Positions 7,361 through 64,000 are shown, numbered from the stretch's first letter. The stretch: 64,000 nt of DNA from Eubacteriales bacterium (GCA_045541535.1 JAZQJG010000034.1:86143-150142), one strand, 5' to 3'. Translations and numbers: made by a program. The notes: generated by a model from the sequence alone, not told the origin.

Positions 7361-7448
7361 TGGTGCGGGTAAGAGGACTTGAACCTCCACCGGTGCAATA
7401 CCGACTAGAACCTGAATCTAGCGCGTCTGCCAATTCCGCCATACCCGC
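7361..7448 (-). tRNA. tRNA-Leu (anticodon CAG), CCA encoded
   Basis: The reverse complement reads GCGGGTATGGCGGAATTGGCAGACGCGCTAGATTCAGGTTCTAG...GGTTCAAGTCCTCTTACCCGCACCA. It has anticodon loop TTCAGGT and a long variable arm. Confidence 0.9.
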
Positions 7449-7453
7449 ATGTA

Positions 7454-7540
7454 TGGTGCAGACGGCGGGACTTGAACCCGCATCCCATCGCTGGGACTAC
7501 CACCTCAAAGTAGCGTGTATGCCAATTTCACCACGTCTGC
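7454..7540 (-). tRNA. tRNA-Leu (anticodon GAG), CCA encoded
   Basis: The reverse complement reads GCAGACGTGGTGAAATTGGCATACACGCTACTTTGAGGTGGTAG...GGTTCAAGTCCCGCCGTCTGCACCA. It has anticodon loop TTGAGGT and a long variable arm. Confidence 0.9.
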
Positions 7541-14204: not shown

Positions 14205-14388
14205 TAGAATGAAATATTTTCCTTGCGGAAAATATGAAATAATTCACTACAGTGAATTGTGAAATTTTGTGCTTACGCAGAAAGTGAAATAAAATTCGCC
14301 TATTTACATTTGCGAAGCAAATATTTCATAACGATGTTATTTCATATGCGACAGCATATTTCACTCGCCGAAAGGCGAATTTCATTGA
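14205..14388. repeat. Non-coding array of short perfect hairpins punctuated by TGAAAT (left half) / ATTTCA (right half)
   Basis: GAAAT starts at 14211, 14236, 14261 and 14286, an exact 25-nt period. ATTTC starts at 14323, 14339, 14358 and 14379. The palindromes between them are 14214-14235, 14241-14258, 14266-14283 (imperfect), 14308-14322, 14344-14359 and 14365-14378. Confidence 0.7.
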
Positions 14389-14421: not shown

Positions 14422-14513
14422 TGGCGGAGAGAGAGGGATTCGAACCCTCGAGACGCTATCAACGCCTACACGATTTCCAATCGTGCGCCTTCGGCCATCT
14501 CAGCCATCTCTCC
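14422..14513 (-). tRNA. tRNA-Ser (anticodon GGA), CCA encoded
   Basis: The reverse complement reads GGAGAGATGGCTGAGATGGCCGAAGGCGCACGATTGGAAATCGTG...GGTTCGAATCCCTCTCTCTCCGCCA. It has anticodon loop TTGGAAA and a long variable arm. Confidence 0.9.
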
Positions 14514-16930: not shown

Positions 16931-18694
16931 TTATACTCGGTCTTTGATTTCGGTGGTGATTTTTTCCAGGAAGGCCTCTAAAGACATAGTCTCCGTTTTA
17001 GCGGTGTCACGGTTACGGACGGCAACCGTTCCTTCCTCCACTTCCTTCTGGCCGATGACCAGCATATACGGTACACGGTCAACCATCTGCGCCTCTCGGA
17101 TCAGATAACCGATCTTCTCATTACGATCATCAAGCTCGCAACGGATACCGGCAGCACGAAGGGCTTCGTACACCTTTTTGCCGTATTCGGCGCTCTTTTC
17201 AGAAACCAACAATACTTTAACCTGAGTTGGAGCAAGCCATGCGGGGAACTTACCGGCAAAGTGTTCGGTGAGAACACCGATAAATCTCTCAATGGAGCCA
17301 AAGCATACTCTGTGGATCATAATAGGACGTTGCTTTTCGCCCTTTTCATCAATATACTCAAGTTCAAAATTGATGGGCATCTGGAAGTCAAGCTGAATGG
17401 TACCGCACTGCCAGGTTCTGCCGATGGAGTCCTCCAGATGGAAGTCAATCTTAGGACCGTAAAATGCACCGTCGCCCTCGTTGACGATATAATTGAGGCC
17501 CAATTTATCCAGCGCATCCTTCAGACCGTTGGTTGCGGCCTCCCAATCCTCGTCACTGCCCATACTGTCCTCCGGACGGGTGGAAAGCTCAACAAAATAT
17601 TTAAATCCGAACTTTTCATACACTTCGTTGATCATATGAACAACGTTCATAATCTCGTCGGTAATCTGCTCTTTACGCATAAAGATATGAGCATCGTCTT
17701 GGGTAAAGCAACGCACACGGAACAGACCGTGCAGAGCGCCCTTCAGTTCGTGACGATGAACCAGACCCAACTCGCCCACACGCATCGGAAGATCACGGTA
17801 GCTGTGCGGCTGATTGCGATATACAAGAACACCACCGGGGCAGTTCATAGGCTTTACGCAGAAAATGTCTTCGTCGATACTGGTGGAATACATGTTGTCT
17901 TTATAATGATCCCAATGTCCACTGGTTTCCCACAGATGACGATTCATAATCAAAGGAGTAGAAACCTCCAGATAATTCTCTCTGGTATGGATCTCTCTCC
18001 AATAATCAATCAAGGCATTCTTCAGCGCCATACCCTTGGGCAGGAAGAAAGGAAAACCGGGGGCTTCTTCATTCATCATAAACAAGCCCATTTCTTTGCC
18101 AATACGACGGTGATCACGCTTTTCTGCCTCTTCCAGCAGTTTCAGATATGCTTCCAGTTCCTCGTTGTTGCGGAAAGCAATACCCTTCACGCGGGTCAGC
18201 ATCTTATTATCCTTGTCATTTTTCCAGTAAGCGCCGCTTTGCGCCATGATTTTAAATGCCTTGAGCGCCTTGGTATAGCACAGATGAGGGCCGACACACA
18301 TATCAATATAGTCCCCCTGCTGGTAGAAGCTGATGGGGGCATCCTCCGCCAGATCACCAATATGCTCCACCTTATAGATCTCGCCACGGTCAGCCATCAA
18401 TTTGATGGCTTCGTCTCTGGGCAAAATATAGGGTTTGATGGGTAAGTTTTCTTTAACGATCTTACGCATCTCCTGTTCAATCGCCTGCAGATCCTCATCC
18501 GTAAGCTTATCATCTCCCAGGTCCACGTCATAATAAAAACCATTGTCCGTGGCAGGACCATAGGCGAAATGAGCGTGGGGATACAGACGCTGAATCGCCT
18601 GTGCCATAATATGAGCCGCCGAATGGCGAATCACGTGCAGTTCTTCTGCTTCAGGACACTGAACGACGCTGCCGTCATTGTGAATAACTTTCAT
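16931..18694 (-). CDS. thrS: Threonyl-tRNA synthetase (short form, N-terminal TGS domain essentially absent)
   Basis: Editing-domain motif IRHSAAHIMAQAI appears by residue 22. Class II core motifs are present (FRVRCFTQDDAHIF, GAFYGPKIDF), as is an anticodon-binding domain. A Thr T-box lies upstream. Confidence 0.95.
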   Translation of the reverse strand: MKVIHNDGSVVQCPEAEELHVIRHSAAHIMAQAIQRLYPHAHFAYGPATDNGFYYDVDLGDDKLTDEDLQAIEQEMRKIVKENLPIKPYILPRDEAIKLMADRGEIYKVEHIGDLAEDAPISFYQQGDYIDMCVGPHLCYTKALKAFKIMAQSGAYWKNDKDNKMLTRVKGIAFRNNEELEAYLKLLEEAEKRDHRRIGKEMGLFMMNEEAPGFPFFLPKGMALKNALIDYWREIHTRENYLEVSTPLIMNRHLWETSGHWDHYKDNMYSTSIDEDIFCVKPMNCPGGVLVYRNQPHSYRDLPMRVGELGLVHRHELKGALHGLFRVRCFTQDDAHIFMRKEQITDEIMNVVHMINEVYEKFGFKYFVELSTRPEDSMGSDEDWEAATNGLKDALDKLGLNYIVNEGDGAFYGPKIDFHLEDSIGRTWQCGTIQLDFQMPINFELEYIDEKGEKQRPIMIHRVCFGSIERFIGVLTEHFAGKFPAWLAPTQVKVLLVSEKSAEYGKKVYEALRAAGIRCELDDRNEKIGYLIREAQMVDRVPYMLVIGQKEVEEGTVAVRNRDTAKTETMSLEAFLEKITTEIKDRV

Positions 18695-18725: not shown

Positions 18726-18945
18726 AAAAACACCCCTGGCAACTCACGTTGCCAAGGGTGCGATTGCACGGTTCCACCTTGGGTTTCACTCTTACTTCTT
18801 TAACGCAGAAATACGTTATCGCTTACTGCAGTTTCGGCGATACAGCTCAGGAATGGTCTTCATCGGTTTGCTTTCGGAAGGCTTACAGCCAACGACCTCC
18901 CTCTCTGTAGAAAACGCACTCGATTACTCTTTCCGTCTTTGCTTT
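18726..18945 (-). promoter_or_regulatory. T-box leader, specifier ACC (Thr), with terminator
   Basis: On the minus strand the leader reads AGACGGAAAGAGTA...CAGAGAGG...GAAG-ACC-A-TTCCTGAGCT. The T-box core is AACCCAAGGTGGAACCGTG. The terminator is CACCCTTGGCAAC...GTTGCCAGGGGTG followed by TTTTT. The ACC specifier is at 18855-18857. Confidence 0.85.
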
Positions 18946-18951
18946 TATTTG

Positions 18952-24918: not shown

Positions 24919-27552
24919 TTAGTCCTTCTTTTCTAGTCCCGCAATAGTCGCTTCAATGGAAGCAATCAACTGCTCGAACTTTACTTTTTTCTCTTTCTCC
25001 TGTTCCACCAACTGCGCAGGTGCCTTGGCCATAAAGCCGGCATTACCGAGCTTACCGTTAACACGACCAAGTTCTGCCTTTGCATTTTCAAGTTCCTTAT
25101 TCAACCGTTTGATCTCGGCGGCGATATCCACCAATTGATCAAAAGGAATATAAACCTTACCCAAGGTGCAAACAATGTTTACCGCATTGTCGGCAGGGCA
25201 CTTCTCAACGCTGACTTCACTGGCGCCGGCCAACTTGCCAAAGAAGGGAGCGGCATCCAAAACCACCTCGGGATACTCGGTTTCAAAATACAAAGCCGCC
25301 TTTTTGGACATAGGAACGTTCATTTCACTACGACGGAACCGAATGGCCTTAATGGCATCCATCACCCGCTCCATATCCTCGGCATCCTTCGAAAAGACAA
25401 GATTTTCATCATATTTGGGGAAAGCGGCAATCATAATGGACTCGTCTTCCATAGGCATAGATTGCCAGATCGCTTCGGTCAGGAACGGCATAAAGGGATG
25501 CAGCATCTTCAGTGCGCCGGTAAATACATACAGAAGCACTCTTTGGGTTTGCTCATTCTCTTCGGTGTTATCCTTATCGTTCAGTCTGGGCTTTACAAGC
25601 TCAATATACCAATCACAGAACAGATCCCAAATGAAATCATAAACCTTCTGCAGAGCCAGACCGATTTCAAATTTATCCAGATTATCGGTAACGTCCTTAA
25701 CAACGGCATTATAGCGATCCAAAATCCATTTATCCTCTGCACGAAGTTTGGCAAAGTCGGGATGCGCATCCTCCACCGTCAGATTCATCAGAATAAATCT
25801 GGCAGCATTCCAAACCTTGTTGGCAAAGTTGCGGGAGGATTCAACGCGCTCGTCATAATAACGCATATCGTTACCGGGCGAGTTGCCGGTGGCAAGACTG
25901 AAGCGCAAAGCATCGGCACCGTATTTTTCAATAACTTCCAGCGGATCAATGCCGTTGCCCAGGGATTTGGACATTTTTCTACCCTGAGAATCACGGACCA
26001 GGCCGTGAATGAGAACGTGAGAGAAGGGTTTTTCCTTCATATGTTCCATACCGGAAAAGATCATTCTGGCAACCCAGAAGAAGATAATATCATAGCCGGT
26101 AACCAGGACGCTGGTGGGATAAAAATACTTCAGATCCTCAGTATTATCGGGCCAACCCAACGTGGAGAAGGGCCAGAGTGCGGAAGAAAACCAGGTATCC
26201 AGCACGTCGCTGTCCTGATGAATATGGGTGCTACCGCACTTGGGGCATACACTCACCTCTTCAGCGGCGACCACCATTTCACCGCAATCCTCACAGTAGT
26301 ATGCAGGAATACGGTGACCCCACCACAACTGACGGGAAATGCACCAATCACGCACGTTTTCCATCCAGTTAAGATAGGTCTTGGTAAAGCGGCCGGGAAC
26401 AAACTTGATTTCTTCGTCCTTTACCACACGGATCGCCTCTTTAGCCAACGGCTCCATTTTTACAAACCATTGTTTGGAAGAAATAGGCTCAACCGTAGTG
26501 CCGCAACGATAGCAGGTACCAACGTTGTGCATATGGGGCTTGATCTTTACAAGATATCCGCCCTCTTCCAAATCGGCGACAATCGCCTTTCTGGCCTCAT
26601 AGCGGTCCATGCCCTGATACTTGCCACCGTTCTCATTTACGCAAGCCTTGTCATCCAGCACCAAAATTTCTTCCAAGCCGTGGCGCTTGCCAACCTCAAA
26701 GTCGTTGGGGTCATGGCTGGGAGTAATCTTTACGCAACCGGTACCAAAGTCCTTTTCAACGTATTCATCGGCAACCACGGGAATCTCTCTACCAACCAAA
26801 GGCAGGATCAACATTTTACCAACCAAATGAGTATATCTTTCATCATCGGGATGCACGGCAACAGCGGTATCGCCCAGCATGGTTTCGGGGCGGGTAGTAG
26901 CGATCTCTACAAACTCATCACTATCCTTAACGGGATAACGAATGTGCCAGAAATTACCCTGCTGCTCGTCATACTCAACCTCTGCATCGGACAGAGCGGT
27001 AATACAATTGGGACACCAGTTGATAATACGGTTGCCTTTATAAATCAGACCCTTGTTGTACAGGTTGATAAATACCTCTTTAACCGCCTTGGAACAGCCA
27101 TCGTCCATAGTAAAGCGTTCTCTGTCCCAATCACAGCTGGAGCCCAATTTTTTGAGCTGATTGATAATACGGTTTCCGTATTGCTCTTTCCAAGCCCAAA
27201 CGCGCTTTAAAAACTCTTCTCTGCCCAGATCGTGACGGGTCAGACCCTCCGATTTACGCAGTTCTTCCTCAACTTTAATCTGGGTCGCAATGCCGGCGTG
27301 GTCGGTACCGGGAACCCACAGCGCATTAAAGCCCTGCATTCTCTTATAACGGATCAGAATATCCTGCAAGGTCTCGTCCAAAGCGTGACCCATATGCAGC
27401 TGACCGGTAACGTTAGGCGGCGGGATCACGACGGTAAAGGGAACCTTGTCGGAATCGGGCTCTGCATGAAAATATTTACCCTTCAACCAAAAATCGTATA
27501 TGTCCTGTTCTACTTCTTGCGGGGCATACTGTTTGGCAAGTTCTTTAGCCAT
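24919..27552 (-). CDS. valS: Valyl-tRNA synthetase
   Basis: HIGH motif ([13 protein letters not shown]), KMSKS motif (KMSKSLGN) and a C-terminal coiled coil; 877 aa. A Val T-box lies upstream. Confidence 0.97.
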
Positions 27553-56065: not shown

Positions 56066-56863
56066 TCAGTCCACATTTAAACCTTTTTTAAGCAGTACTC
56101 CACCCACGATCAAGCCGATGATCAGCAGTGCGCTGTACGCAACATTTCCGCCAATCATCAAGGCAGGAAACACGTCAAAATTCTGGGGTGCATTCTGTCC
56201 GAAAAGTTCCAAAACTTCCCTTGAAAACGGAAAGGCGACAACGATCGTCAAAACGAACGCAATCCCTTGGGACACAAAGTATACAAGGATTCCAAACAAA
56301 AACGAAAGTCCCACTTTGCCACGGTTAAAACAATGACCGATAATCGTGCCGATATATCCGCATTGCACCATACTCATCAGCTCCACAAACACCAGAAAAA
56401 TTAGTAAAAAAACCATTACAGGTATGCTCACTTTCATTGCCTGGGAAACAGGGATGAGCATGTTTTTGAGCAACGCATAATTCTCCTTGGAATAAAATGC
56501 AATTACAATTGAAAGACACACCACGGCAAAGCTGGTGATCAGTGAGAGCATACCTGCCACAAACTTAGATACGTAATGGCTATGGCGCTTTACGGGCAAA
56601 GTATGAGTGAGATAGCTTTCATCGCCAAACAGATTGTGCCGAAAGCGGATCCAGCAATGAATTACGTTATTGATCAACGTGGAAAACAACGCAGAAATCG
56701 TGGCGCCACTGCAAATTTTCCCAATGATATTCAGTATAAAAATCTCGTCAAAACAACCGAATAATCGGGTCAACATCGCCAATCCAAGAGTGATAATATA
56801 GTACACGATCAGTGATTTGCTGAGCAAAAACCGCAGATCGTAATGAATCAATTTTTTCAGCAT
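56066..56863 (-). CDS. ABC-2-type transporter permease (six TM, uncharacterised)
   Basis: Hydrophobic 265-aa protein, translationally coupled to the upstream ABC ATPase by a 7-nt overlap. Confidence 0.7.
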   Translation of the reverse strand: MLKKLIHYDLRFLLSKSLIVYYIITLGLAMLTRLFGCFDEIFILNIIGKICSGATISALFSTLINNVIHCWIRFRHNLFGDESYLTHTLPVKRHSHYVSKFVAGMLSLITSFAVVCLSIVIAFYSKENYALLKNMLIPVSQAMKVSIPVMVFLLIFLVFVELMSMVQCGYIGTIIGHCFNRGKVGLSFLFGILVYFVSQGIAFVLTIVVAFPFSREVLELFGQNAPQNFDVFPALMIGGNVAYSALLIIGLIVGGVLLKKGLNVD

Positions 56864-57552
56864 CGAAACATCCTCCTGAAAATCTCGTCAATTGAAGCAT
56901 TCTCTCTAGTGCGCAGTTCGTCGGTTGACGAAGCCAGCACCACCTGTCCCTGATCAATAAAAATCACGTCATCCAAAATTTGCTCCACATCAGAGATCAG
57001 ATGAGTAGAAATCAGAACCGAAGCTCCCTCGTCAAAATTGGACAAAATCGTATCCAAGATATAATCCCTGGTAGCAGGATCCACACCACCCAGCGGTTCG
57101 TCCAAAATATAGAGTTTTGCCTTTCGGCTCATCACCAAAACAAGTTGTAGCTTTTCCTGCATACCCTTACTCATTTTGGATATTTTTTGTTCTTCCGACA
57201 ATCCGAGATCCTGTAGCAAACGCTTGGCACGCTCAATCTCAAAATCCTCATAGAACTGTTCAAAATATTTCAGCACAGCCGAAACTTGCATATTCTTATC
57301 CAGATACGTACGCTCCGGCAGGTAGGAAATCAACCGTTTACTCTCCACACCAATGCTCTGTCCATTCACTGAAATCATACCGCTATCAGGGGTCAGCAGA
57401 TCGTTTATCAGCTTGATCAACGTGGATTTTCCTGCACCGTTTTTACCGAGAAGTCCCACAATGCGACCGGCGCCGATCTGAAACGAAACATCCCTTAAAA
57501 TATATTGTCCGTCAAACTTTTTACTGACGTTTTTGCATTCCAGCAAACTCAT
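56857..57552 (-). CDS. ABC transporter ATP-binding protein
   Basis: Walker A GKNGAGKST, signature MSKGMQEKL and Walker B LYILDEPLGGVD. Confidence 0.9.
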   Translation of the reverse strand: MSLLECKNVSKKFDGQYILRDVSFQIGAGRIVGLLGKNGAGKSTLIKLINDLLTPDSGMISVNGQSIGVESKRLISYLPERTYLDKNMQVSAVLKYFEQFYEDFEIERAKRLLQDLGLSEEQKISKMSKGMQEKLQLVLVMSRKAKLYILDEPLGGVDPATRDYILDTILSNFDEGASVLISTHLISDVEQILDDVIFIDQGQVVLASSTDELRTRENASIDEIFRRMFRC

Positions 57553-57917
57553 TTATACTCTCCTCCCATTCCTTGAATCAAAGCAATTGTTTTTTCGGTA
57601 TCATAGCCAATGTTCTTCATATCCGACAAAAAACGCTGACCAATACGCTGGGCATATTCCGCACGAAAATCGGCAATCTTTTGGGTATCCTCACTGACGA
57701 ATTTTCCGTTGGTGCGCTCCGTATAGATCAAACCGACACGTTCAAGTTCCAGCATTGCTTTTTGTACGGTATTCGGATTGACCTTGGTTTGTAACGCCAA
57801 TTCCCGCACCGATGGCAAGCGTTCCCCCGGAGTAAGTACGCCGGAAATAATATATACCCTCAGTTGATCAACAAGCTGAATATAAATCGGCGTATTATTA
57901 TCAAACGAAAACCTCAC
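57549..57917 (-). CDS. GntR-family (YtrA-subfamily) transcriptional regulator
   Basis: The wHTH is LPSVRELALQTKVNPNTVQKAMLELE, followed by a short C-terminal domain. The start is the GTG at 57917, 5 nt after GGAGGT. Confidence 0.88.
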   Translation of the reverse strand: MRFSFDNNTPIYIQLVDQLRVYIISGVLTPGERLPSVRELALQTKVNPNTVQKAMLELERVGLIYTERTNGKFVSEDTQKIADFRAEYAQRIGQRFLSDMKNIGYDTEKTIALIQGMGGEYK

Positions 57918-57929
57918 TACGCACCTCCA

Positions 57930-57951
57930 TTGTATTACTTGGCTAATACAA
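57930..57951. promoter_or_regulatory. Candidate YtrA-type operator
   Basis: Perfect inverted repeat TTGTATTA-N6-TAATACAA lies between the -10 element and the RBS of the GntR gene. Confidence 0.6.
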
Positions 57952-57979
57952 TAATACACCATACCAATCATTTTGTCAA
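57951..57979 (-). promoter_or_regulatory. Sigma-A-type promoter of the GntR-ABC operon
   Basis: TTGACA-17 nt-TATTAT on the minus strand. Confidence 0.55.
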
Positions 57980-57982
57980 TAG

Positions 57983-58015
57983 AAAAAAGAGGTTGTACAA
58001 AACAACCTCTTTTTT
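57983..58015 (-). terminator. Intrinsic terminator after the amidohydrolase gene
   Basis: AAAAAAGAGGTTGT-ACAAA-ACAACCTCTTTTTT. Confidence 0.8.
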
Positions 58016-58021
58016 GATCCG

Positions 58022-58840
58022 TTAAAATTGCCGTTTGATGCCGTAAACTTTACAAACGTTTTCACACAAAATCATTCGTTTTTCATCTGCCGTTAACGGT
58101 AGAGCGGCAAAACGATCCAATTCTGCGGCAGAGGACCACAACGGATAATCGGTACCGAACAGAACTCTGTCGGCCCCAAAAGCGTGAATCATTTGCACCA
58201 CGGAAGCTGCATCCCGATACATCATCGTAGACGAACAATCCACACATAAATTGGGGCAATCGACCAACTTTTCCGTTGCTTCCTCCCATACCGACCAACC
58301 GGCAAAGTGGGCACCCACCATTGTAAGGCCCGGAAATTCCCGCAAGACGCGCAAAACACGGTCGGGATTGGAATTATCATAACGATAGTCCCCCGTATGC
58401 ACCAGAAGGGGTAATTTTTCCTTCTGGCAAAGTTCATAGATCCGCATACAACGCTCGTCATCCATTTTAAAGTTCTGGATATCAGGGTGCAATTTCACCC
58501 CGTGAAGCCCCAACTCCACCAGATGATGCACATCTCCCCGCTGATCTTCGCCATCCGGATGCAGGGTACCCAAACCAATCAAACGGTCGGGGTGCGCGGA
58601 AACGGAAGCAGCAATAAATTCATTGATGCTTTTAACCTGATGCGGGGTGGTTGCAACCGACTGTACCACAAAACGGTCAATACCGGCGGCAATTCCTTCG
58701 GAAAGCATTGCCTCCACCGTACCGTCGGCGTAGGGCTCTTCTCCATAAAAATCGCCGGTGCTTTTGGCCGCACGGGCGGCAATCTTTTCGGGATAGATAT
58801 GGCAATGGGCATCAATTACCAAATACTGATTTTCAAGCAT
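58022..58840 (-). CDS. Amidohydrolase-2-family TIM-barrel metal-dependent hydrolase
   Basis: Motifs IDAHCHI, HGVKLHP and FGTDYP; 272 aa. It is the last gene of the Leu T-box operon. Confidence 0.8.
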   Translation of the reverse strand: MLENQYLVIDAHCHIYPEKIAARAAKSTGDFYGEEPYADGTVEAMLSEGIAAGIDRFVVQSVATTPHQVKSINEFIAASVSAHPDRLIGLGTLHPDGEDQRGDVHHLVELGLHGVKLHPDIQNFKMDDERCMRIYELCQKEKLPLLVHTGDYRYDNSNPDRVLRVLREFPGLTMVGAHFAGWSVWEEATEKLVDCPNLCVDCSSTMMYRDAASVVQMIHAFGADRVLFGTDYPLWSSAAELDRFAALPLTADEKRMILCENVCKVYGIKRQF

Positions 58841-58849
58841 TTGACTCCC

Positions 58850-61354
58850 CTATCCTTCCAGACCCAGCTTGCGGGCGGCATCCTCACGCATTTTATATTT
58901 CAAAATCTTGCCGGCCGCATTCATCGGGAAGGCGTCCACGAAATCAATATAACGGGGCACTTTATGACGAGCCATATTTTCATTGATGTATTGCTTCATC
59001 TCGTCCTCGGTCATGCTCTCCCCTTCTTTGAGAATAATACAAGCCATAATCTCCTCGCCGTACCGTTTGTCTGGCACACCGATAACTTGTACGTCACGTA
59101 CCTTGGGATGAGTATAAATAAACTCTTCGATTTCTTTAGGATAGATGTTTTCGCCGCCGCGGATGATCATATCCTTCAGACGGCCGGTAATGAGATAATT
59201 TCCCTCGGGCGTGCGGCAGGCAAGGTCGCCGGTGTGTAACCAACCGTCCTTATCAATGGCGGCCGCAGTAGCCTTGGGCATTTTGTAATAACCCTTCATA
59301 ATGTTATAGCCGCGCGCAACGAATTCACCGTTCACGCCGTCAGGGCAATCCTCGCCCGTCTCAGGATCAACGATCTTACATTCAACGTTAGCAAAGGCAC
59401 TGCCTACCGTTTCGGTGCGCACCTCCAGAGAATCATAATAACTACTCATAGTACAACCCGGAGAGGCCTCGGTCTGACCGTAAACTGACACGATTTCCCG
59501 CATATTCATAACGTCCGGCTGAGCGGCTTTTTTCATCAGATCGGCAGGACAGTTGGCACCCGCCATAATGCCGGTGCGAATATAGGAAAAGTCGGTCTTC
59601 TCAAAATCAGGATGCTGCATCATCGCAATAAACATAGTGGGCACACCGTTAAAACAGGTGATGTGCTCGTTATGAACGCAGGACAGCGCAGGCTTGGGTG
59701 AAAAGTAAGGAATGGGATACATCGTGGTGCCGTGAGTCATAGAAGCGGTCATAGAGAGAACCATACCGAAGCAATGGAACATGGGCACCTGAATCATCAT
59801 ACGGTCAGCCGTAGACAGATCCATATGATCACCGATATATTTACCGTTATTGACAACGTTATAATGCGTCAGCATAACGCCCTTGGGGAAGCCGGTGGTG
59901 CCGGAGGTGTACTGCATATTGCAGACATCATCCTTATCCACGGCAGCCGCCATACGATATACCTCTTCCACAGGCACCTGAGAAGAGCGAGAAACCGCCT
60001 CCTCCCAAGTCATGCATCCCTTTTGCTTGAAACCAACGGTGATAACGTTTCTGAGGAAGGGCAAACGACGGCTGTGCAAAGGTTTGCCGGCTTTGATCTC
60101 CTCCAGTTCGGGGCAGAGCTTGGCAATGATCTCACCATAATGATTGTCCTTACCGCCCTCGGTGAGAATAAGGGTATGAGTGTCGGACTGGCGGAGCAAA
60201 TATTCCACCTCCGCAATTTTATAGGCAGTGTTAACGGTGACCAAAACGGCGCCGATCTTAACCGTTGCCCAGAAGGCAATATACCACTGAGGTACGTTAG
60301 AGGCCCAGACTGCTACGTGATGACCGGCTCTGACGCCCATATCAATCAGCGCTCTGGCAAAGGTATCCACGTCGTCACGGAATTCGCTGTAGGTACGGGT
60401 ATAATCCAGCGTGGTATATTTAAATGCGTACTGATCGGGAAATTCCTCCACCATACGGTCCAGCACCTGGGAGAACGTGAGATCAATTAAAAGATCCTTT
60501 TTCCAGATAAATTTGCCGGTATGGGCACGGTTATAATACAGGGTCTTTTCATTTTTGGAGGTATCGTTGAACTGTTTCATAAAGTTGACGTATTGAGAAA
60601 AAATGATCTCCATATCGTCCAGTTCTTCAGACCACTTAGGATCCCAAACCAAAGAAATAAAGCCATCGTAGTTTACGGAACGCAACGCCAGCATCATTTC
60701 TGCAATAGGCAGTTCTCCCTCGCCGGCCAGGCAAAATTCAACGCCATTCTCCGTTTTGACACCGTCACAGAAAAGAACGTGTTTTAAATATGCGCCCAGA
60801 TTCTGAATAATCTCCTCTGAGGATTCTCCTGCCCCAAAATAAGCGGCAGACATATTCCAAAGTGCCGCCAGATTGTCACAGGCAAAGCGATTGAGCATCT
60901 CCCGCAGATAAGCGGTGTTGCAGAAAATACCGGAAGTTTCAAGCAGAAAGGTGATTCCCTTCTCCTCGGCTTCAGGAAGTACCTCGGCGATACAGGCGGC
61001 AATGCCGTCCAAAGAACTCTCGTCTCCTGACATCGCCTTGATACGGACGTTGGGAATATGAAGATTGGCAGCTACCGCCATACAACGACGGATTTCATCC
61101 AAGGTTGCCTCTTTGGCGCTTTCCTCTGCCAGATCGCACAACGTGTCAATACAAGGAATCTGCAGTTTTTTCTCGTACAGACGACGCAGAGTGGCCGCCG
61201 CGGCGTAATCGTGAAAGGCGCCGCCACGGTCGGTAAACAAGCGGTTGTTGATATTGTGCAGTTCAATACCGGAAAAGCCCAGTTCTACTGCAATATCGCA
61301 AAATTCTTCAAAGGTATTGTGATGCCACCCACGGGTGGAAAAAGAGAGTTTCAT
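58850..61354 (-). CDS. Fusion protein: N-terminal xylose-isomerase-like TIM barrel + C-terminal AMP-forming acyl-CoA synthetase/ligase
   Basis: Residues ~1-270 are AP_endonuc_2-like (GFSGIELHN..., FLLETSG, ISLVWDPKW). Residues ~290-834 are ANL-type (YTSGTTGFPKGVMLTH, TGDLACRTPEGNYLITGRLKDMIIRGGENIYP, PMNAAGKILK). Confidence 0.85.
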   Translation of the reverse strand: MKLSFSTRGWHHNTFEEFCDIAVELGFSGIELHNINNRLFTDRGGAFHDYAAAATLRRLYEKKLQIPCIDTLCDLAEESAKEATLDEIRRCMAVAANLHIPNVRIKAMSGDESSLDGIAACIAEVLPEAEEKGITFLLETSGIFCNTAYLREMLNRFACDNLAALWNMSAAYFGAGESSEEIIQNLGAYLKHVLFCDGVKTENGVEFCLAGEGELPIAEMMLALRSVNYDGFISLVWDPKWSEELDDMEIIFSQYVNFMKQFNDTSKNEKTLYYNRAHTGKFIWKKDLLIDLTFSQVLDRMVEEFPDQYAFKYTTLDYTRTYSEFRDDVDTFARALIDMGVRAGHHVAVWASNVPQWYIAFWATVKIGAVLVTVNTAYKIAEVEYLLRQSDTHTLILTEGGKDNHYGEIIAKLCPELEEIKAGKPLHSRRLPFLRNVITVGFKQKGCMTWEEAVSRSSQVPVEEVYRMAAAVDKDDVCNMQYTSGTTGFPKGVMLTHYNVVNNGKYIGDHMDLSTADRMMIQVPMFHCFGMVLSMTASMTHGTTMYPIPYFSPKPALSCVHNEHITCFNGVPTMFIAMMQHPDFEKTDFSYIRTGIMAGANCPADLMKKAAQPDVMNMREIVSVYGQTEASPGCTMSSYYDSLEVRTETVGSAFANVECKIVDPETGEDCPDGVNGEFVARGYNIMKGYYKMPKATAAAIDKDGWLHTGDLACRTPEGNYLITGRLKDMIIRGGENIYPKEIEEFIYTHPKVRDVQVIGVPDKRYGEEIMACIILKEGESMTEDEMKQYINENMARHKVPRYIDFVDAFPMNAAGKILKYKMREDAARKLGLEG

Positions 61355-61356
61355 GC

Positions 61357-62736
61357 TTATGCCTCCTCGTATACGATCTTGTTGACGGCATTAATATAGG
61401 CGCGGATGCTGGCGCCGATAATATCAGTGGAAATACCGTTACCGGAATACAGCTTGCCGCCGGAACGCAGTTTGACGATGGCCGAGCCCATTGCTTCTTT
61501 ACCCTCGGTAACCGATTGAATCTGGAAATCATCCAGTTCATAGTGATAACCGATGATCTGATCAATGGCCAAAAAAGCGGCGTCAATGGGGCCGTCGCCA
61601 AGGCAAACGCCCTGCATCGGCACGTCGTTTTTACTCAGCGTAATCTGTGCGCTGGAAGAAATAATATTTCCGTTATTGATGATGTAATTTACAAGTTTAT
61701 AGGTAGCGGGCACCTGCAATGCAACGCTGGCGACAATAGCCTCCAGTTCTTTGGCGCCAACATTTTTGTTGGCGGCCACATTGCGAAATTCTTCATATAC
61801 CTTGGCCTGATCTTCCTCGGAAAGATCGTAGCCCAGCTTTGCCACCGCCGTAATGACTGCCGCCTGATCGTCGCCGGCATCCAGCCGTATACCGCTTTCA
61901 TCTGCCATAGCGACCGTGACGGCAGATTTTTCATTTTTAACGTTTTGCGCAATCCAACGGATTTGTTTTACTACACGGTGGAGTTCAGTGACACGGATAC
62001 GAGAAGCAAAACCGTAAGTATTGCCGCAGTTTTTGATCATATCGGTAAAGACCTCCAGATCCACTCCGGTGCCCTCTACACAGGCCTTAACGTCCGCCAC
62101 ACCGGCACGAACCGCCAAAATCACAGATGCACAGGCCAGACCGTTTTTATCTTCACAAGCCACCGCTACGGGTAAGTCGGTATATTCCACGATCTCACGT
62201 GCAAATGCCGCAAAGTCATCGGGCATCATTTCAGCCGCCGTATCACATACCGCTACGCAAGAGGCGCCGGCAGCCACAGCTGTTTCAATGGCCTGACGCA
62301 AAAAATCGCCCTCTGCACGGGTGGCGTCCTGCGCACAGAATTCAACCTTACCGCATTTCTCTTTGGCGGCAGAAACGGCCGTTTTGATCCACTCAAGCAT
62401 TTTATCGGGTTTACGATGGCTGATATATTCCATCCCCACGGGAGACATGGGAAGTTCAATACGAATACAAGCGTTTTCCGCATTACTCAGGGCCAAAGCG
62501 GCATTTTCAATACTCTCCATATTGCTGCCCGCCGCAACGCTGAGCGTCGCTTTTTTCACAAAAGAAGAAACGGTGCGCACAAACAGGATATCGGTTTTTG
62601 CATTGACGATTTCAGGAAGCTCGATCACATCCACGTTTAGCTTTTCCAACTGACGGGCAATCTCGATCTTTTCTTTAAAGCCGAAGACGCCGTCCTTACG
62701 GCAAAGTGTTGTGTCGGCAATTTTGATTTGTTTCAT
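61357..62736 (-). CDS. 2-isopropylmalate-synthase-like protein with degenerate catalytic motifs and an intact LeuA-type C-terminal regulatory domain
   Basis: HMGL-like barrel in which DTTLRDGEQ is replaced by DTTLCRKDG and HxH by AVACEDKNG. The C-terminal GDGPIDAAFLAI...GISTDIIGASIRAYINAVNKI matches the LeuA dimer/regulatory domain. Confidence 0.8.
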   Translation of the reverse strand: MKQIKIADTTLCRKDGVFGFKEKIEIARQLEKLNVDVIELPEIVNAKTDILFVRTVSSFVKKATLSVAAGSNMESIENAALALSNAENACIRIELPMSPVGMEYISHRKPDKMLEWIKTAVSAAKEKCGKVEFCAQDATRAEGDFLRQAIETAVAAGASCVAVCDTAAEMMPDDFAAFAREIVEYTDLPVAVACEDKNGLACASVILAVRAGVADVKACVEGTGVDLEVFTDMIKNCGNTYGFASRIRVTELHRVVKQIRWIAQNVKNEKSAVTVAMADESGIRLDAGDDQAAVITAVAKLGYDLSEEDQAKVYEEFRNVAANKNVGAKELEAIVASVALQVPATYKLVNYIINNGNIISSSAQITLSKNDVPMQGVCLGDGPIDAAFLAIDQIIGYHYELDDFQIQSVTEGKEAMGSAIVKLRSGGKLYSGNGISTDIIGASIRAYINAVNKIVYEEA

Positions 62737-62762
62737 AACAGTTCATCCTTTCATTGTGCCTT

Positions 62763-63052
62763 AAAAAATAAAAATCCCTGAGATCGGAAAAACACCGATC
62801 TCAGGGACGAAAAAACTCCGTGGTACCACCCTGTTTACCGCATAAAGCGATCACTCTTCCAGCTCTATCAAGCCGAATGCCGTGGTAACGGTGGCAAACC
62901 CGTGACCGCCTACAAGTAAAAGATTCAGCAGTCCGGCTCAGGAGTGAGACTTCTTTACTCGTTCACACTGCCTCACACCAACCGACAGCTCTCTGAAATG
63001 AATGGGAATAAAGAATAATTCCGTCATCGCCTTTAAAAGGTAGTTTTAAATT
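62763..63052 (-). promoter_or_regulatory. T-box leader, specifier CUC (Leu), with terminator
   Basis: On the minus strand the leader reads GGCGATGACGG...CAGAGAGCTGTCGGTTGGTGTGAGG...GAAGT-CTC-A-CTCCTGAGCC. The T-box core is AACAGGGTGGTACCACGG. The terminator is TCCCTGAGATCGG-7 nt-CCGATCTCAGGGA followed by TTTTTATTTTTT. The CTC specifier is at 62946-62948. Confidence 0.85.
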
Positions 63053-63059
63053 ATTATGG

Positions 63060-63088
63060 ATTATACCACAGCGTAGTTGCTTTGTCAA
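63060..63088 (-). promoter_or_regulatory. Consensus sigma-A promoter for the Leu T-box operon
   Basis: TTGACA-17 nt-TATAAT on the minus strand. Confidence 0.7.
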
Positions 63089-63098
63089 CAAAAATTTT

Positions 63099-64000
63099 TC
63101 AGTCCAGATGGTAAACCCAACCGAAGGCATCTTCCTTCTTGCCCCACTGGATACCGGTCAAGGTATCGTAGAGATGCTGAGTCACAGCGCCGATTTCACC
63201 ATTGTTGACGGTATACTTCTGATCCTTGTAACAAAGCTCGCCGATGGGAGAAATAACCGCAGCAGTGCCGCAACCCCAGGCTTCCTTCAGAGTGCCGTTT
63301 TCCATAGCCTCGGCCAGTTCGTCAATGCTCAGCAGTCTTTCACTGACTTTATAACCCTCCTTGCGCAGAACTTCCAAGCAGGACATTCTGGTAATACCGG
63401 GCAAAATGGAGCCGGAGAGCATGGGAGTAACGATCTCGTCACCGATGAGGAACATAACGTTCATAGCGCCAACCTCTTCGATGTACTTTCTTTCTACACC
63501 GTCCAGCCACAGAACCTGAGAATAGCCCTTCTGTGCGGCGCGCTCACCAGCACGGGTGGAAGCGGCATAGTTACCGCCACACTTGGCATATCCGGTACCG
63601 CCGCGAACAGCGCGAACGTCCTCGTCCTCAATCATAATCTTTACGGGATTGATACCCTCGGCATAGTAACTGCCAACGGGAGAAGCGATGATCACGAAGG
63701 TGGCGTTGTGCACGGTGTGCACGCCCAAAGATTCGTCGTTACCATACAGGAAGGGACGCAGATACAGCGAGGTACCCTCGGCAGAAGGAGTCCAATCCTG
63801 CTCACATTTTACAAACTCAGTCAGCGCTTCAAAAGCGATTTCCTCGGGAATTTCAGGTAGGCAGAGACGCTCGGCAGAGCGATTCATTCTACGGATGTTT
63901 TCCATAGGACGGAACATCTGTACCTTACCGTCCGCACGACGATAGGCCTTCAGGCCCTCAAAAATCTCAGCACCGTAATGAAGAACGGTGGAGGCAGGAT
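63099..64000 (-). CDS. ilvE: Branched-chain amino acid aminotransferase (5' end beyond window)
   Basis: The frame is open to the window edge (…HYGAEIFEGLKAYRRADGKVQMFRP…). Class IV aminotransferase motifs are present, including GGTGYAKCGGNYAAS. Confidence 0.92.
   Translation of the reverse strand, partial: PASTVLHYGAEIFEGLKAYRRADGKVQMFRPMENIRRMNRSAERLCLPEIPEEIAFEALTEFVKCEQDWTPSAEGTSLYLRPFLYGNDESLGVHTVHNATFVIIASPVGSYYAEGINPVKIMIEDEDVRAVRGGTGYAKCGGNYAASTRAGERAAQKGYSQVLWLDGVERKYIEEVGAMNVMFLIGDEIVTPMLSGSILPGITRMSCLEVLRKEGYKVSERLLSIDELAEAMENGTLKEAWGCGTAAVISPIGELCYKDQKYTVNNGEIGAVTQHLYDTLTGIQWGKKEDAFGWVYHLD

Follow-up and report, generated by a model that had tools for sequence, protein, structure and literature searches.

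A leucine T-box operon beside ilvE that pairs a degenerate LeuA paralogue with an acyl-CoA ligase: a probable leucine branch of branched-acid salvage in gut Clostridia

Ruminococci reportedly depend on branched-chain volatile fatty acids, and their carboxylation of isovalerate to leucine is said to have been described by Allison and Bryant in the 1960s. This reductive carboxylation in rumen and gut anaerobes is the described process with which we compare a three-gene operon located on the minus strand, at positions 58,022–63,088, of a stretch of DNA from a Eubacteriales bacterium (GCA_045541535.1, JAZQJG010000034.1:86143-150142). The whole analyzed stretch, 64,000 nucleotides long, is referred to as the window. 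The operon encodes a LeuA-like protein, a fusion of a TIM barrel with an acyl-CoA ligase, and an amidohydrolase; it is preceded by a leucine T-box leader and adjoins ilvE. Judging from its sequence and from comparative genomics, it is probably the leucine branch of a salvage route that leads from isovalerate to leucine and is induced by a lack of leucine. As in the route of Allison and Bryant, the acid would be converted to its acyl-CoA, which would undergo ferredoxin-dependent carboxylation and then transamination. The proposed route differs in that dedicated ligases would replace activation by a kinase and a phosphotransacylase and in that each branch has its own tRNA-sensing switch. A full-text literature search revealed nothing linking T-boxes, branched-acid ligases and the 2-oxoacid:ferredoxin oxidoreductase (VOR), and the papers searched did not tie the branched-acid carboxylation route to any dedicated set of regulated genes.

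Two other described systems resemble parts of this locus. Leu T-boxes upstream of leuA are known, and in a survey of T-boxes only leuA itself is mentioned (PMC2494555). The leuA operons controlled by T-boxes or attenuators share with the studied operon the upstream Leu T-box and the order of an HMGL-like barrel and a LeuA_dimer domain in the encoded protein. However, the LeuA-like gene of the window is followed by a ligase gene and not by leuBCD. The second system is MbcS of Staphylococcus aureus, an acyl-CoA ligase that, when purified, was selective for 2-methylbutyrate and isobutyrate and poor on isovalerate (PMC10026030).

The gene order proposed in the initial annotation, namely ilvE, a promoter with a Leu T-box, the LeuA-like gene, the barrel::ligase fusion, the amidohydrolase gene and a terminator, was confirmed in all its elements, and all of them lie on the minus strand. 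The 3′ part of ilvE (63,099–64,000) encodes a class IV branched-chain aminotransferase (NF009897, 370.9 bits vs. a cutoff of 307; TIGR01123, 339.7 bits vs. 250). Its reading frame is still open at position 63,998, at the window edge, so the gene is cut by this edge and the listed 272-aa open reading frame (ORF) is not the whole ilvE. The promoter of the operon is of the sigma-70 type, TTGACA-17-TATAAT with an extended -10 TG (63,060–63,088; 12/12 match). Downstream of the leader, the LeuA-like ORF (459 aa) occupies positions 61,357–62,736, the fusion ORF (834 aa) positions 58,850–61,354, and the amidohydrolase ORF (272 aa) positions 58,022–58,840. The coordinates also bear out the stop-to-start gaps of 2 and 9 nt and hence the single unit that had been read from them; the unit is closed by a 9-bp hairpin, AGAGGTTGT/ACAACCTCT, with a 5-nt loop and a T run (57,983–58,010). 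This terminator was missed by a simple terminator scanner and was found by reading the sequence.

The T-box model RF00230, whose gathering score is 93, was matched over its full length (positions 1–219) by the leader (62,800–63,036), with 118.3 bits and E = 1.4e-25. The cmscan alignment places a CUC (Leu) specifier at 62,948–62,946, with an A after it (GAAG-u-CUC-A), and the T-box sequence with the UGGN bulge, GGGUGGUACCACGG, is present around 62,832–62,817. A terminator hairpin with 14 pairs and a T run (62,774–62,808) overlaps the 3′ half of the antiterminator, which makes the two structures mutually exclusive. The whole leader folds better than every shuffled sequence (z = -3.8). The window also contains, at 7361–7540 on the minus strand, tandem genes for tRNA-Leu(CAG) and tRNA-Leu(GAG), the latter at 7454–7540; tRNA-Leu(GAG) is the cognate reader of the CUC specifier, and CUG is the alternative specifier in other clades. 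From the leader, it is predicted that the unit is switched on by uncharged tRNA-Leu.

In all, 160 related loci were collected. The genome scan covered one genome per species, and the best 80 loci of at least 589 genomes with a relative were used as the close set; another 80 loci, the distant set, were retrieved from metagenomes with a profile built on distant members of the family. P0449, one distant protein used by itself as a query against the metagenomes, gave no matches. The LeuA-like proteins of the distant set are 37–69% identical to that of the window, with a median of 46%. The best 80 genome loci all belong to metagenome-assembled genomes with labels such as Clostridia, Eubacteriales, Acutalibacteraceae, Oscillospiraceae and Ruminococcus. 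Ruminant gut samples are the source of many of them, which recalls the organisms of Allison and Bryant. In the counts below, loci "with room" are those whose sequence extends far enough to show the next gene.

The fusion gene was found directly after the LeuA-like gene in 65/65 close loci with room. In the distant loci with room, down to 37% identity, the barrel followed the LeuA-like gene in 54/54 cases and the ligase in 33/33. Co-conservation across related genomes, the test by which the initial annotation would have its hypothesis judged, was therefore passed by this pair. Its wider version, in which all three genes and the T-box are conserved together, held for the pair and for the leaders with a readable specifier; the amidohydrolase gene turned out to be specific to the clade of the window, and some distant loci lack a T-box. 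Since the LeuA-like gene and the fusion are always paired while the amidohydrolase gene drops out, these two make up the invariant core of the operon. In two loci (L016 and L017) the surroundings differ and the unit of T-box, LeuA-like gene and ligase is intact. A chance co-occurrence of the parts was considered and rejected, as the same arrangement recurs in the 160 loci of other genomes and metagenomes.

Every readable leader directly upstream of a LeuA-like gene had a Leu specifier (115/115). It was CTC in 67 and CTG in 4 of the 71 close leaders, and CTC in 25 and CTG in 19 of the 44 distant ones. Scanning with Rfam placed the T-box above the gathering score in 7/7 close loci and detected no T-box in ten distant loci; thus, T-box control is not universal for the LeuA-like family. 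Five loci that are distant and apparently high-GC (L081, L086, L087, L140 and L148) have the LeuA-like–ligase pair with no T-box and no adjacent ilvE or VOR. A T-box-like leader below the Rfam gathering score was found at L107:1207-1472, before a series of genes for ParA, VOR, IlvE, the LeuA-like protein and the ligase. Its specifier is not readable confidently: the aligned column gives GAA; shifted by one base, it may be CUG.

The initial annotation stated correctly that the window lacks a 2-oxoacid:ferredoxin oxidoreductase. The collinearity of the window with its closest relative, L001 (IlvE is 96% and the ligase domain 97% identical), reaches as far as the GntR/ABC genes that follow the operon, and the contig of L001 extends past the window edge. 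There, directly upstream of ilvE, genes were found for VorD, a ferredoxin with two [4Fe-4S] clusters, and for a VorB-type alpha subunit (NF005507, 535 bits vs. a cutoff of 399), a beta subunit and a gamma subunit of the oxidoreductase (VorDABG). The ilvE orthologue of L001 encodes 354 aa and is the last gene of this vor operon. The full order is T-box–ligase, T-box–ligase–ParA-like–vorD–alpha–beta–gamma–ilvE, with gaps of 15 nt or less or overlaps. This supercluster was found in about 35/80 genome loci, so that all three enzyme classes of the route (ligase, oxidoreductase and aminotransferase) are encoded together in L001 and in about 35 genome loci. VOR is also present in 9/80 metagenome loci, in several gene orders. 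Six loci (L120, L139, L144, L149, L158 and L160) have the order (ParA-)VOR–ilvE–LeuA-like–ligase with no T-box between the genes, L137 has T-box–LeuA-like–ligase–ilvE–ParA–VOR, and in L088 and L138 the ligase gene is followed by ilvE. At least three different arrangements of VOR, ilvE, the LeuA-like gene and the ligase gene are known from other clades.

A P-loop ATPase similar to ParA and NUBPL (L001:5295-5975, with orthologues in about 45 loci) is always encoded between the Val-controlled ligase and VOR; where the gene order differs, its gene has changed place along with vor. No NCBIfam model matched it. This protein might serve the oxidoreductase as an Fe-S or maturation factor.

The two additional ligase genes of L001 have their own T-boxes, with the specifiers AUC (Ile) upstream of the first and GUA (Val) upstream of the second. 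Across the loci, the leaders of the first ligase had ATC (Ile) in 7/7 cases and those of the second had GTA or GTC (Val) in 18/18. The Ile, Val and Leu specifiers before the three ligase units indicate one T-box-controlled ligase for each branched-chain amino acid, with VOR and IlvE shared, and induction by a lack of the matching amino acid is predicted from these specifiers. The best curated match of both the Ile- and the Val-controlled ligase was MbcS (NF047394; 422 and 435 bits, below the cutoff of 850). In contrast to MbcS, which serves lipid synthesis and has no T-box control, the gut ligases carry an N-terminal module of about 280 residues with an XRE-type helix-turn-helix (HTH) and a cupin. 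Both MbcS-like ligases with this module were observed at L001:72-5285 and also in L003, L004, L006, L019, L022, L024, L032 and L048. Such a fusion of a DNA-binding module with an adenylate-forming enzyme is reminiscent of BirA and, by this analogy, could couple acid availability to transcription. The ligase of the window is about 25% identical to the MbcS-like ligases and belongs to another subgroup of ANL enzymes; the poor activity of MbcS on isovalerate would explain why the Leu branch uses a different ligase.

The ligase domain of the window protein comprises residues ~286–834 (58,850–60,499), with AMP-binding and AMP-binding_C domains at residues 299–816 (PF00501, 302 bits, E = 5e-90; PF13193, 70 bits). 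The core motifs of ANL enzymes, namely YTSGTTGFPKG, YGQTE, TGD, GRLKDMIIRGGENIYP and GKILK, were read intact in the translation and are near-invariant in the family alignment. The identity of this domain is 68–97% across the 160 loci and 68–80% in the distant ones. The best NCBIfam match was PRK12583, with 655 bits vs. a cutoff of 832. Ligases of the PRK12583/YngI type presumably occur in leucine-catabolism clusters; a literature search on YngI and on an isovalerate-CoA ligase gave nothing useful. Judging from its motifs, the domain appears to be competent, and we propose that it is an isovalerate-CoA ligase. Isovalerate is suggested as the substrate because of the Leu T-box, the linkage with VOR and IlvE and the parallel with the Ile and Val branches.

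The most likely route is as follows. The ligase would activate isovalerate to isovaleryl-CoA, VorDABG would reductively carboxylate it to 4-methyl-2-oxopentanoate, and IlvE would transaminate the latter to leucine. The MbcS-like ligase with the Ile T-box would feed 2-methylbutyrate into an isoleucine branch, and the one with the Val T-box would feed isobutyrate into a valine branch. VOR and IlvE would be common to the three branches and are encoded in the Val-controlled operon, so that the window would contain the Leu branch and the last shared gene. It is inferred that VOR works in the reductive direction. The Leu T-boxes, the core pair and the VOR/IlvE linkage support the proposal of the initial annotation that a leucine-starvation-induced isovalerate route is located beside ilvE.

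Several observations weigh against this interpretation. The window itself contains only the ligase and IlvE, and the position of VOR beside the window ilvE rests on collinearity with L001. About 12 close loci have no VOR within 10 kb, and ilvE and a detectable T-box are both missing directly upstream in 24/77 distant loci. The ligase scores below every curated NCBIfam cutoff, so that homology does not assign its substrate. Finally, the route needs the ligase, VOR and IlvE only, which leaves the obligatory LeuA-like protein and barrel, as well as the amidohydrolase, unexplained.

A different use of the acyl-CoA products was also considered. As with MbcS in S. aureus, the branched short acids scavenged by the ligases could end up as acyl-CoA primers of the branched-chain fatty acids of the membrane. 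A proxy signal would then come from the T-boxes, since such primers are normally derived from branched-chain amino acids. The similarity of the Ile- and Val-controlled ligases to MbcS, whose proven role is the supply of these primers (PMC10026030), speaks for this possibility. However, the Val T-box operon carries its ligase together with VOR and IlvE, and switching on VOR and IlvE when valine is scarce would be meaningful only for synthesis, which argues against a purely lipid-related role. In addition, three switches specific to amino acids fit amino-acid supply better than lipid homeostasis. We consider the lipid role quite unlikely as the main function; it can coexist with the amino-acid route, and isovaleryl-CoA could serve both the lipid and the leucine ends.

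The LeuA-like protein, the first product of the operon, contains an HMGL-like domain (PF00682) and a LeuA_dimer domain (PF08502, E = 1.4e-28, residues 327–454). Comparison with the Listeria LeuA structure 3ewb showed that the catalytic residues have been lost. The RDGEQ motif is replaced (DTTLC---RKDG vs. DTTLRDGEQ), and with it the substrate-binding Arg and the metal-binding Asp are gone. The HxH metal ligands are also missing (ACEDKNG is aligned to HCHDDLG). A deletion of about 30 residues affects the segment that holds the catalytic His (HESGIHQDG), whose remnant, ESGIRLD, contains Arg instead of His. Shortened proteins, ~460 aa vs. 500–520 aa in LeuA, are characteristic of the whole family: an exhaustive search of 1.84 billion representative proteins yielded more than 100 clusters at 50% identity, with lengths of 455–475 aa and identities from 67% down to 31%. 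The three catalytic losses (RD, HxH and the His segment) were found in every family member, whereas the true LeuA proteins in the alignment keep all three. The column identity is 0.88 in the C-terminal LeuA_dimer domain vs. 0.75 in the barrel, i.e., the LeuA_dimer domain is the best conserved part. A search of PDB sequences with this domain alone gave no matches. In P0498, a protein of LeuA length (511 aa), DGEQ is preserved with Cys replacing Arg, HxH is lost (RAYND) and the catalytic-His segment is altered. This protein may represent a second, independent degenerate LeuA lineage.

By its domains and its Leu T-box, the first gene could be taken for a working 2-isopropylmalate synthase, and the operon for a remnant of an ordinary T-box-controlled leucine pathway of the kind described for leuA (PMC2494555). 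The best LeuA equivalog model (NF002086) gave 269 bits, far from its cutoff of 532, the catalytic losses extend to family members between 67% and 31% identical, and leuBCD were not adjacent in any of the 160 loci. A working synthase is therefore hardly conceivable. The "LeuA-like" label of the initial annotation is right as regards the HMGL-like and LeuA_dimer domains and does not extend to an active synthase; on residue evidence, the protein is catalytically dead and cannot be an isopropylmalate synthase.

A regulatory role for this protein would have a precedent by analogy. HisZ is the allosteric subunit through which HisG, a first committed enzyme, receives end-product feedback, and in both systems an inactive paralogue of a pathway enzyme is always encoded with the enzyme that opens a route to the same amino acid. 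The families are unrelated. Strict pairing, tight spacing and a conserved domain of the leucine-binding type allow us to suggest, tentatively, that the dead LeuA is a leucine-binding regulatory partner, which would provide end-product feedback on the ligase. More specifically, the protein of ~460 aa might possibly be an obligatory leucine-sensing subunit of the isovalerate-CoA ligase that docks on the degenerate barrel of the fusion and stops salvage at high leucine. If this is true, a replacement pathway has its first enzyme controlled by the feedback module taken over from the first enzyme of the classical pathway, and the HTH-cupin modules of the Ile and Val ligases would play a matching role in their branches.

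The barrel that precedes the ligase is of the xylose-isomerase-like type (residues ~1–270, 60,545–61,354) and was recognized by PF01261 at residues 20–237 (70.8 bits vs. a cutoff of 31.1, E = 1.9e-19). The barrel sequence alone gave only weak matches in the PDB; the family profile matched Art22, MJ1311 and AsbF. Among solved proteins, Art22 is the nearest to the barrel, and a literature search on it led to unrelated papers. A model built with database homologues had a moderate predicted local distance difference test score (pLDDT 73.5), and Foldseek aligned it with a TM-score of ~0.7 to Art22 (an isomerase), UlaE and AsbF, as well as to sugar epimerases. In alignments to MJ1311, AsbF and Art22, E139 and H192 are the only canonical metal ligands, out of four, that the barrel retains. 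In the Glu-Asp(xxHis)-His-Glu arrangement, Asp is replaced by Asn, with the His three residues on replaced by Ala, and the last Glu by Val. The invariant polar residues of the barrel are H33, N34, R57, D70, E87, R104, E139, D160, E177, H192, D197, E212 and D230. By these alignments, the barrel is degenerate and only distantly related to solved structures.

The amidohydrolase belongs to the Amidohydro_2 family (PF04909, 126.9 bits vs. a cutoff of 26.4, E = 1.7e-36), i.e., to the metal-dependent TIM-barrel enzymes of the COG2159 type. H12, H14, H148, H178 and D231 are invariant and form a complete HxH/H/H/D metal site. The model (pLDDT 95.8) was matched by Foldseek with a probability of 1.0 to LigW, BB4693 and gamma-resorcylate decarboxylase, and LigJ and ACMSD were also among the matches. 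Its relatives are thus COG2159 decarboxylases and hydratases together with two uncharacterised proteins, BB4693 and CAC3332, which are the closest solved structures. The fold and the HxH/H/H/D site are shared with LigW, gamma-resorcylate decarboxylase, ACMSD, LigJ and BB4693. However, the identity to characterised members is 15–25%, the window protein has 272 aa vs. ~330 aa, and the aromatic-acid pathway context of these enzymes is absent here. The gene follows the fusion in 54/60 close loci and in 3/28 distant loci with room. Because so few distant loci have it, it cannot be an essential step and is an add-on of the clade of the window; the protein looks like an active enzyme that is dispensable outside this clade. 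A core pathway step catalyzed by the amidohydrolase was accordingly rejected as a candidate, the gene being missing from 25/28 distant loci.

The suggestion of the initial annotation that the amidohydrolase frees leucine from an N-acyl or amide conjugate did not hold up well. Apart from the name of the family and the Leu T-box upstream, nothing speaks for it. The nearest relatives by sequence and structure are non-oxidative decarboxylases, a hydratase and uncharacterised proteins, with no acylase or peptidase among them, and the gene is missing in 6/60 close loci as well as in the distant loci mentioned above. Such a release of leucine is highly improbable.

The LeuA-like protein, the barrel and, where present, the amidohydrolase could also be enzymes of a new multi-step route that makes the acid substrate of the ligase from another precursor or processes its CoA ester, in which case isovalerate would not be the direct input. 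The 13 invariant polar residues of the barrel and the complete metal site of the amidohydrolase are consistent with this, and fused domains often catalyze consecutive steps. On the other hand, every residue that metal binding and Claisen chemistry are known to require has been lost in the LeuA-like family, the barrel keeps only half of its canonical metal ligands, most distant loci lack the amidohydrolase, and the Ile and Val branches, which run in parallel, do without such enzymes. A multi-step route of this kind is therefore unlikely, and the direct use of isovalerate by the ligase remains the preferred interpretation.

Other features of the window were also annotated. Directly after the operon terminator, a further promoter (57,951–57,979, minus strand), found by the promoter scan, starts a separate unit at 56,066–57,971 on the minus strand, which encodes a PmtR-like GntR regulator, a PmtA-like ATP-binding cassette (ABC) ATPase and a membrane protein without an assigned family; this unit is kept in L001. 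A second T-box (18,751–18,948, minus strand; 103.9 bits) lies upstream of thrS (16,931–18,694, minus strand; TIGR00418, 695 bits). Its specifier position in the cmscan alignment is ACC (Thr), which is an ordinary arrangement. No T-box was found at the Rfam gathering score for valS (24,919–27,552, minus strand; NF004349, 1273 bits), although the branched-acid ligases of the relatives have Val and Ile T-boxes. A Gut-1 RNA (14,318–14,387, minus strand; RF01706, 54.5 bits vs. 50) adjoins the gene of tRNA-Ser(GGA) (14,422–14,513).

The chemistry of the proposed route and the T-boxes are classical. New are the assignment of genes and regulation to an old pathway and a family of pseudo-enzymes that had not been described. 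Public records label the operon proteins only as "hypothetical protein" (LeuA-like), "AMP-binding protein" and "amidohydrolase", and the current annotation is thus uninformative. The locus reveals a large pseudo-LeuA family whose role is probably regulatory. For the observation dating from the 1960s, it provides a candidate gene set, namely three ligases with their own T-boxes and the shared VOR and IlvE, with relatives of the locus in at least 589 species-level genomes. This set makes the old question of branched-acid use directly testable, and its genes would serve as markers from which dependence on branched acids and cross-feeding can be predicted for the communities of rumen and gut.

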